Of a stretch of 64,000 nt of DNA, positions 2,437 through 3,209 are shown one piece after another (position 1 is the stretch's first letter; every line of letters begins with the position of its first letter). This stretch comes from an uncultured Rivularia sp. GTDB taxonomy: Bacteria; Cyanobacteriota; Cyanobacteriia; Cyanobacteriales; Nostocaceae. Made by a program: the position numbers and the translations under genes. The stretch is taken from the NCBI GenBank assembly GCA_963665115.1, contig OY762007.1, positions 4,224,001-4,288,000 on the forward strand. The letters run 5' to 3'. The notes under the pieces are model-generated. The model had not been told where the DNA came from and ran no database searches. It saw nothing but the letters and a program-made list of their open reading frames with translations.

Positions 2437-2452
2437 CCATATAACTGCTATG
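2437..2452 (-). other. hupL element recombination (direct-repeat) site
   Basis: Minus strand CATAGCAGTTATATGG, about 510 nt from the hupL start; one mismatch to the Anabaena hupL-element repeat CACAGCAGTTATATGG as I recall it. Confidence 0.85.
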
Positions 2453-2947
2453 GGGCCATTGTCCGCCGAATAAAGCATATATCTCTACAGGTTTGCTAGA
2501 AATTGTGATTCCAATTTCATAAGACTTACCTGTAAACGGTGCAAAACGACGACAAGCTTCTTGATAGAAATGACTGTGCTGATACTTTTTATTAGTTAAG
2601 TCAATCGCAAACAGTCCATAGAAATAGCGAGGAATACTTTGTATTGTTTCGACAATCTGACCGATGTTTCTCGCCAAAATAGCATTGCGCGGAACTTCAG
2701 TTTTCCAAGCAGTATCTAAAGCCCAGGCTCCACTAGTTAAATGCGAAGCACCGCAGATACCGCAGACGCGAGGTGTCACAATTAATCCGGCTTGCGGATC
2801 TTTACCGCGCAAAATTACTTCAAAGCCGCGAAATAATTCTGCGTGCGTCCAAGCATTAACGACTTGTCCATCATCGATATCTACCCTTACATCCAAATCG
2901 CCCTCAACTCTACCGAGCGGCGAAATGTCTAATGTTTGAATTCCCAT
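2437..2947 (-). CDS. hupL: Uptake [NiFe]-hydrogenase large subunit, 5' segment (interrupted)
   Basis: LDISPLGRVEGDL, RVCGICG (L1 motif) and GGQWPHSSYM; the normal continuation VPGG is replaced by VIVG-stop. Confidence 0.95.
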
Positions 2948-2949
2948 AA

Positions 2950-3070
2950 TATTATTTTGTTAGCTGTTAGAGATAGGTAATAGGTAATGGGAATAAGGAT
3001 TAATAATTCCTAAGCGAATATTCTCTACTTTTTACTTCTCACTCCTAACTATTCCCAATTACCTATTATT
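2950..3070. repeat. hupS-hupL intergenic heptamer (STRR-like) repeats with hairpin potential
   Basis: tgttagctgttag; ataggtaataggtaatgggaata can pair with tattcccaattacctatta. Confidence 0.7.
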
Positions 3071-3075
3071 AAATT

Positions 3076-3204
3076 TTAGACTGTAAAAAAGTCTTCTTCT
3101 GCCCAAGCTGGCATTGAGTCTTTTGCTGCCATTGTCAAAATGGCATAGTCTTTTTTGTTGACTCCTGTAGGCAAATCTTTTGGAACTCCTAATACTGTCT
3201 GGGT
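3076..3204 (-). CDS. hupS: Uptake hydrogenase small subunit, 3' segment (last 42 aa; interrupted)
   Basis: Hand translation TQTVLGVPKDLPTGVNKKDYAILTMAAKDSMPAWAEEDFFTV-stop matches the cyanobacterial HupS C-terminus; an in-frame TAA at 3205-3207 stands where Lys is expected; lies directly upstream of hupL. Confidence 0.92.
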   Translation of the reverse strand, partial: TQTVLGVPKDLPTGVNKKDYAILTMAAKDSMPAWAEEDFFTV

Positions 3205-3209
3205 TTACT

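Follow-up and report, generated by a model that had tools for sequence, protein, structure and literature searches.

Two site-specific recombination elements split the hupSL genes of a Rivularia genome, the larger one carrying conjugation genes

The stretch of DNA analysed here, hereafter the window, comprises 64,000 nucleotides from an uncultured Rivularia sp. (GenBank assembly GCA_963665115.1, contig OY762007.1) and holds, near its left end, a short piece of the uptake hydrogenase genes hupS and hupL that is separated from the remainder of both genes by two different inserted elements. Positions prefixed with w are window positions, i.e. the position on the contig (G000:C1) minus 4,224,000, and numbers smaller than 1 or larger than 64,000 refer to DNA beyond the ends of the window. 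The 8.69-Mb genome with the window is called G000, other genomes G001-G042, runs X1-X20 and records L013-L120; counts at the level of the genus refer to 27 genomes.

The hupSL island and its two elements

The two elements flank a host island of approximately 765 bp, composed of the last 41 codons of hupS, a 128-bp spacer and about 171 codons of hupL. An earlier note on this DNA had recognized such a short host fragment between two breaks, which stands, and had placed the hupS break near position 3206, which has to be corrected to w3200-3201. From left to right, the locus is built up as follows.

w-7325 to w-6223, minus strand: 3' part of hupL (VPGG...), beyond the left repeat
w-6242 to w-6223: left copy of the 20-bp repeat, found by exact match search
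w-5969 to w-4653, plus strand: XisC-type tyrosine recombinase, 438 amino acids, about 254 bp inside the element and on the strand opposite hupL
w1-2436: in-window end of the hupL element, which continues left to G000:C1:4,217,760 (w-6240)
w2435-2454: right copy of the 20-bp repeat, CACCATATAACTGCTATGGG, differing at one position from the repeat of Calothrix PCC 6303 in the table of Hilton
w2435-2947, minus strand: 5' part of hupL, codons 1 to about 171 (NCBIfam matches for the NiFe large subunit)
w2948-3075: hupS-hupL spacer, 128 bp (from the sequence)
w3076-3201, minus strand: 3' part of hupS, codons 280-320 and stop (translation, tblastn)
w3200-3225: left attachment site, with the 2-bp core at w3200-3201 and an arm (arm symmetry, conserved in relatives)
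w3200-64000: in-window part of the hupS element, which continues to w142631
w3262-4579, plus strand: XisF-type large serine recombinase (NF041201, 417.8 bits, cut-off 375)
w4450-4626, minus strand: 58-codon antisense open reading frame (ORF), overlapping the 3' end of the recombinase gene and starting 47 bases past its stop
w142606-142631: right arm and core, with the element end at G000:C1:4,366,631 (w142631)
w142630-143468, minus strand: 5' part of hupS, then the hyp cluster, right of the hupS element and outside the window

Removing both inserts in silico results in an uninterrupted HupS of 320 amino acids and a HupL of 531 amino acids, without stops, and intact copies in relatives have the same lengths (320-amino-acid hupS frames, and a HupL of 531 amino acids in G041). 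If only the hupL element is removed, hupL remains without the upstream start of its operon, and if only the hupS element is removed, HupL ends after 174 residues. Because the two elements are adjacent and not nested, excision in either order yields the same product. The hyp genes beside hupS are intact. The hupSL promoter had been predicted to lie more than 60 kb away; it does, and with the 5' part of hupS at w143468-142630 the promoter side is in fact 139 kb away.

The element in hupL measures 8,677 bp and lies between exact 20-bp direct repeats. A 16-mer at w2437-2452, at which the break had been placed correctly, has a single further exact copy in the genome, at w-6240, and forms part of the full repeat (w2435-2454 and w-6242 to w-6223), of which two copies exist genome-wide. 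A tyrosine recombinase, the second 16-mer and 3' hupL had been predicted to lie left of the window, and all three are found there. The catalytic residues of tyrosine recombinases are present in the enzyme, which has no match to an XisC model in NCBIfam. As cargo, the element carries HTH-ClpN, RNase III-like, ATP-grasp and hypothetical genes. A short palindromic repeat within it (w2250-2317) recurs elsewhere in the genome, with many short contigs and loose ends, and the end of the element left of w2360 varies among strains.

The element in hupS interrupts the gene at codon 280 (nucleotide 838) and is 139,430 bp long. Its two ends together make up an imperfect inverted repeat centred on a single dinucleotide (w3200-3201 and w142630-142631), around which the arms pair at 16 of 21 positions in the element, versus 7 of 21 in the host site. 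This 2-bp core is invariant in all junctions that were read, being six 5' and six different 3' hupS junctions as well as that of G041. A long direct repeat at the hupS break was rejected, since no 10-12-mer of w3195-3224 occurs at the far end, where only the 2-bp core is shared. Furthermore, a 7-bp arm motif at positions -22 to -16 reappears at -17 to -11 in both host targets, clearly so on the left side, and a 5-bp shift of this kind has been described for serine integrases (Rutherford 2013, PMC3783163). Judging by its ends, the hupS element probably uses a 2-bp crossover with an attP/attB architecture, as in the att systems of large serine integrases. No tRNA or tmRNA targets are present in the window or at the six loci inspected. 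An NtcA-like motif at w3210 and a TCCGGA at w4752 were dropped as candidate signals, as they occur near chance frequency and are not kept in all copies.

The recombinase at the left end of this element is 378 amino acids long in G000 and 438 amino acids in relatives, a difference caused by one extra base at w4359. This base is missing at full depth in all three runs that cover it (X1-X3) and in all six aligned relatives, while the contigs of X1-X3 are otherwise identical to G000 over the recombinase and the island; these runs are from the same organism and one study, possibly the source data of the window itself, and their contigs drop rare forms. As such, the frameshift looks like an assembly error, and the reading of the recombinase as a pseudogene is rejected. 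The catalytic serine and the four zinc-ribbon cysteines are invariant. Among the ORFs of the hupS element that were scanned for XisH and XisI (those of 90 amino acids or more) there is no match to either, and the four XisH matches of the genome lie at three distant places, more than 1.7 Mb from the element.

Conjugation genes, cargo and copies in other genomes

Beyond the recombinase, the hupS element has the following content.

w6281-10197, plus strand: AntA-like antirepressor and a large primase/helicase-like ORF, the latter read by eye, without a family match and split at about w9330
w11286-27435, plus strand: conjugation operon, including membrane proteins and an AAA ATPase (family searches)
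w12619-14958, plus strand: VirB4, in the conjugation operon
w17541-19250, plus strand: VirB10/TrbI, in the conjugation operon
w22311-24138, plus strand: VirD4 coupling protein, split (Pfam match above cut-off)
w30144-31749, minus strand: MOBV relaxase in two frames (PF01076, NF041497; Pfam above cut-off), with an extra base at about w31400 that is lacking in G018
w34316-42310, plus strand: TraL-like protein, DUF6753, a 1277-amino-acid protein without assignment and a Dam-type methylase (family searches)
w44974-64000: start of the cargo region, which extends to about w120000
w121494-141704: type III-like restriction-modification pair, conserved operon and IS630-type transposase, beyond the cargo

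The cargo consists of approximately 75 kb of metal-related genes, with four P-type ATPases, two resistance-nodulation-division (RND) systems, two multicopper oxidases, CopB and an arsenic-type cluster, accompanied by MerR/ArsR and two-component regulators and two sigma-70 factors, all named after their Pfam families. Relatives of the VirB4 protein are found on 134 plasmid records, the best at 83%, and the 15 plasmid VirB4 proteins among the matches listed are all cyanobacterial and 57-83% alike. The splits at w9330, w12479, w22769, w24949, w26693 and w31400 each consist of one extra base that is missing from the near-identical copy in the assembly of a relative, and for this reason they are likely assembly errors. 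Short-run single-base insertions split genes at these six positions and likewise at w4359, w32739, w34290 and G000:C1 ~31,250, and apparent pseudogenes in the G000 assembly are best regarded as probable sequencing errors.

Copies of this element in other genomes contrast with the divergence of their hosts. Over the 1,318 columns of the recombinase gene, and leaving the extra base aside, the mismatches to G000 number zero in G018, two in G001 and three in G005 (99.7-100% identity). In the same order, however, rpoC1 is only 91.8, 95.7 and 86.2% identical, and the hyp clusters of these genomes range from 82 to 95%. G005 stands across the midpoint root from G000 in a host tree of 25 rows, examined without a formal clade test. 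Identity of the element DNA reaches 98.2% over 15,542 bp in G005 and 99.5-99.8% over 21.7 kb in G018, and in the latter genome the hupS sequence adjoining the two element ends shows 7 differences in 50 bases on one flank and 8 in 51 on the other.

The copy in G005 occupies a second target gene. Both of its ends stop at the same 2-bp core and are joined to the halves of a Gfo/Idh/MocA oxidoreductase gene, which is uninterrupted in G000; its integration there rules out that this copy is a free circle. We do not claim that G005 lacks hupSL and nif, for which there were no matches, as its contigs break in such elements and the start of hupS is present. A search for the element-arm pattern retrieved seven records from GTDB genomes, six joined to 3' hupS and one to the oxidoreductase gene, and zero matches in metagenome contigs. 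Among those joined to 3' hupS, L085, L089 and L090 bear the titles of cultured strains. Taken together, the identity contrast and the trees give a strong, if indirect, indication of horizontal transfer.

Eight of the 27 genomes have the codon-280 site occupied; the identity of their recombinases goes as low as 85%, and their HupS pieces are 85-100% conserved. The site is empty in run X16 and G013. The elements at this site form a size series, from 139 kb in G000 through about 110 kb in G041, where the element is syntenic and mostly 80-90% identical and hupL is intact, to 1,673 bp in G023. G001 and G018 carry the same backbone at the codon-280 site, both incomplete, and in G002 the 5' junction and the recombinase are on different contigs.

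Related DNA also turns up at other places. In G003 (C1:3,056,840-3,080,000; L118/L119) the same backbone, with a VirB4 of about 96%, lies behind a 39%-identical serine recombinase in nifE, a gene identified by translation and its match to the nif region of G000. A codon-16 hupS element in G013 (C1:1,240,500-1,252,400; L120) has another type of VirB4/VirB10, which is 88-94% like DNA at G000:C1 ~6.03-6.05 Mb. G000:C1 itself contains four further VirB4 loci (1.73-1.77, 5.885-5.925, 6.03-6.07 and 7.64-7.65 Mb); the copy at 1.76 Mb adjoins a tyrosine recombinase, and counterparts of the type at 7.65 Mb (~62%), possibly a fixed locus, exist in almost all genomes of the genus. Towards its 3' end, the Dam-type methylase gene contains a 126-bp tandem repeat (w41127-42061), which is present in other backbone copies as well and resembles DNA near the right end of the hupS element.

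Directionality, excision and the double break across the genus

If the hupS element is to leave the gene again, its recombinase would presumably require a directionality factor, and the 58-codon antisense ORF is a candidate for this role. It is present in all nine element copies, including the element of 1,673 bp. In codons 2-15, which do not overlap the recombinase gene, five of the seven variable columns among six sequences are third positions, and the amino acid changes are L/I, E/D and I/V. A homologous N-terminal stretch persists beside recombinases that are only 50% identical. Furthermore, a convergent ORF of 45-95 codons exists at 19 of 22 XisF-like loci, versus 79 among 877 background frames of comparable length; these loci (L013-L035 and L074, with two near-duplicates of L013 dropped from 24) are related, and do not form an independent sample. 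The convergent small ORFs at XisF-like loci belong to several unrelated sequence types. For heterocyst elements, we found no directionality factor in the literature as far as it was available to us, including PMC12286644.

In the mechanism that we propose, the circular element would enter its target when the recombinase joins attP with attB at the 2-bp core. Excision would be the reaction between attL and attR, turned on by a directionality factor, and the 58-codon ORF is the best candidate for encoding this factor. With excision timed to the heterocyst, where hupSL is needed, the insertion would be nearly free for the host. The excised circle might then be transferred by the MOBV/VirD4/VirB4 system, and loss of all but the recombinase, the small ORF and the arms would leave 'ordinary' elements of 1.7 kb. 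The direction from integrative and conjugative element (ICE) to minimal element is one that we infer.

Excision of the hupS element in heterocysts is suggested by the recombinase family, the intact reading frames and the report on Calothrix sp. NIES-4101 discussed below. For the hupL element, RNA runs X18, X19 and X20 contain joined contigs, from relatives, that skip exactly 8,677 bp. No such contig is listed for DNA run X9, from the sample of X18 and X19. Low-depth RNA contigs on the recombinase gene were set aside, as they could derive from DNA carry-over.

The earlier note had seen a DNA-level AND gate in the two breaks, since making uptake hydrogenase would take two independent rearrangements by two classes of recombinase. 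The elements are indeed separate, one of the tyrosine and one of the serine type, and both have to be removed; that this was selected as an AND gate is unsupported, because the two breaks vary independently within the genus. Calls were based on match ranges and frame lengths, with inspection of the junctions at the codon-280 site and a small number of other sites, and hupS was counted as broken if its match starts at about residue 10-16, is in pieces or ends at an element. By these measures, 5' hupL has matches in 23 of the 27 genomes (17 broken, with a frame below 200 codons, five intact and one unclear), while hupS is broken in 20, intact in four and unresolved in three. Both genes are broken in 13 genomes, and all four combinations occur: hupS alone is broken in G041, G019, G009 and G011, hupL alone in G016, G042, G015 and also run X16, and both are intact in G012. 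The need for two excisions would be a by-product of independent insertions. The double break is also already published and common in the genus, and ordinary by itself: Hilton 2016 (PMC4874684) described Calothrix sp. PCC 7103 with both a hupS and a hupL element, and Uesaka 2024 (PMC11249958) reported, as preliminary, that Calothrix sp. NIES-4101 has a hupS in three parts, which is restored, and an XisC-type hupL element. Nor is the size of the present hupS element exceptional compared to the four of Hilton 2016, which lie at nucleotides 49-51 and 610 and range from 1.8 to 258 kb.

Across the genus, hupS is interrupted at four or more different sites. A break at about codon 160-170, which is not a site of Hilton, is seen in seven genomes (G003, G004, G006, G010, G011, G021 and G022), and in G004 a tyrosine recombinase lies in its gap. 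G004 (C3:4,200-8,100 and 136,000-140,000; L055/L056) has hupS in four parts, with the 5' parts 133 kb away on the opposite strand, so that an inversion would be needed to restore it, and its hupL has two breaks, one near codon 30 (with a tyrosine recombinase) and one near codon 170. G000:C1 encodes at least eight further XisC-like recombinases and one XisF-like recombinase (4.13-4.21 Mb and 4.667 Mb), most of them within the nif region to the left of the window.

Competing explanations and known systems

Of the two elements, the 8.7-kb XisC-type one in hupL and the 139-kb one in hupS, we consider the latter to be probably an ICE that has recently moved between species and that, like the hupL element, would be cut out in heterocysts. 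The conjugation genes, together with near-unchanged copies in other species and in another gene, indicate that the hupS element is likely still mobile. Several observations weigh against this explanation. Neither break has a joint or a loose end in runs X1-X3, whose contigs drop rare forms, and neither an excised circle nor a joined hupS nor transfer was observed. The joined hupL contigs from RNA share about 92-94% with G000 and could stem from natively intact hupL, as found in five of 23 genomes. VirB4 scores 34.5 bits against curated models with a cut-off of 567, several conjugation genes are split in G000 and only the break in the recombinase was compared with the organism's own runs, and G008 and G004 have a recombinase at codon 280 with no conjugation genes in the following 20-25 kb. 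On the right host arms, the arm motif is matched only in part, the cargo is common to the copies only in patches, and approximately 40 of the 58 codons of the small ORF lie codon-aligned opposite the recombinase, where open frames arise easily. Lastly, the assemblies of G001, G005 and G018 are fragmented or of metagenome type and break inside the element, the VirB4 of G001 is only 95% identical, and the hupS record L084 and oxidoreductase record L087 are two bins sharing one sample label.

Part of this would be expected if the hupS element were an immobilised relic with decaying conjugation genes, inherited vertically, and its near-identical copies had arisen from mis-binning or chimeras. The frames of the primase-like protein, virB4, virD4, the AAA protein and the relaxase are all split in G000, the closest copies come from incomplete or broken assemblies, two of the records share a sample label, and the deviating VirB4 makes the copy of G001 a mosaic. 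However, every split is a single extra base lacking in a near-identical copy, and G018 and G005 have VirB4 frames of 905 codons. Single contigs run from the element ends straight into divergent host flanks, a misjoin would not yield two complementary junctions at one 2-bp core, and a 2018 mat run contains the element end with no mismatch besides a one-base gap. A relic thus seems unlikely to us. About as little credence goes to a mobile ICE that is not excised in heterocysts and has knocked out hupS, leaving a strain without uptake hydrogenase. While a joined hupS was not seen, the insertion looks recent, xisH is absent from the element and one copy resides in a gene without a known heterocyst role, a mere knock-out does not sit well with the intact state of both hupS parts, hupL and the hyp genes and their in-frame rejoining, nor with the occupation of the site in eight genomes by recombinases and HupS pieces that are conserved to the extent given above. 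Moreover, the recombinase exceeds the XisF cut-off, and a three-part hupS is restored in NIES-4101 according to the preliminary report.

Selection of two recombinase classes as an AND gate that limits hydrogenase to fully differentiated cells is the least probable of these explanations, and we hold it to be very improbable. Two excisions by enzymes of different families are formally required and double breaks are common in the genus (13/27), but all combinations of breaks occur, the hupS sites are diverse, and with many such recombinases in the genome, multiple breaks are expected without any selection for logic.

A wider reading goes beyond the ICE at hupS, and we put it forward tentatively, regarding it as possible rather than probable. 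The large serine-type heterocyst elements of this genus could be live ICEs instead of dead prophages, in which one backbone swaps XisF-type integrases (at hupS, nifE and others), spreads metal cargo between species and is excised in heterocysts by a tiny convergent directionality factor encoded at the 3' ends of the integrase genes; the hupS versions of 139 kb, 110 kb and 1.7 kb would then be stages of domestication. Hilton 2016 (PMC4874684) considered the origin of the elements unclear, with phage remnants as the usual guess and the roles of XisH and XisI likewise unclear, and phage remnants are also invoked in PMC3542288 and bioRxiv 629832. In the available parts of Hilton 2016, Uesaka 2024 with its supplement text, PMC3542288, bioRxiv 629832 and PMC8461463, the string 'conjug' occurs zero times. 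We found no heterocyst element of the ICE type in the literature outside subscription papers, and in PMC8987985 wording of this kind occurs in references only. What appears to be new is the hupS element itself, with its unlisted site, 2-bp crossover, conjugation genes and heavy-metal cargo. The locus thereby offers a concrete alternative source of heterocyst elements, as a conjugative element apparently caught between species, and comparison is possible with an insertion in another gene, with empty sites and with a minimal form. In addition, a candidate small gene can be named for the directionality switch alongside a defined attP/attB pair, and heavy-metal cargo is tied to a gene for hydrogen recycling.

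Compared to known systems, the hupL element closely follows that of PCC 7120 and the hupL-590 elements (Hilton 2016, PMC4874684): it uses the same site, about 500 bp into hupL, with a near-identical repeat, its tyrosine recombinase likewise lies at the 3'-hupL end on the opposite strand, and its 8,677 bp fall within the 3.8-20.8 kb listed. One base of the repeat differs, the exact repeat is 20 bp and the cargo is another. The likeness to XisC concerns site, repeat, recombinase class and placement. As for the hupS element, its site at nucleotide 838 is not within 10 bp of those of Hilton 2016. In NIES-4101, serine and tyrosine recombinases are found at hupS next to the XisC-type hupL element, so both genes are interrupted as they are here, and the second hupS site of that strain, for which no repeat is listed, may or may not equal the codon-280 site. 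The conjugation genes resemble the cyanobacterial MPF_C/MOBV systems, which are plasmid-related and likewise combine VirB4, VirB10, VirD4 and MOBV in a compact locus; MPF_C was defined, and MOBV found to be mainly cyanobacterial, by Guglielmini 2011 and 2014 (PMC4027160, PMC3158045). The 2011 survey has cyanobacterial ICEs in Cyanothece only, whereas the present element combines an XisF-type integrase with a heterocyst gene as a target that needs to be restored.

With the fdxN element, the hupS element shares a large serine recombinase of the XisF family at the element end, opposite the split gene. The fdxN element, however, has another target and carries XisH-XisI, whereas the hupS element has a small convergent ORF in place of xisH. 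A further parallel is found in the Firmicutes prophages SPbeta, in spsM, and skin, in sigK, which encode a serine recombinase and a small directionality factor. These prophages interrupt a gene that is needed in a terminally differentiated cell and are excised there, and SPbeta is still mobile. The hupS element differs from them in being a conjugative-type element in a cyanobacterium, with a directionality factor that is so far a candidate.
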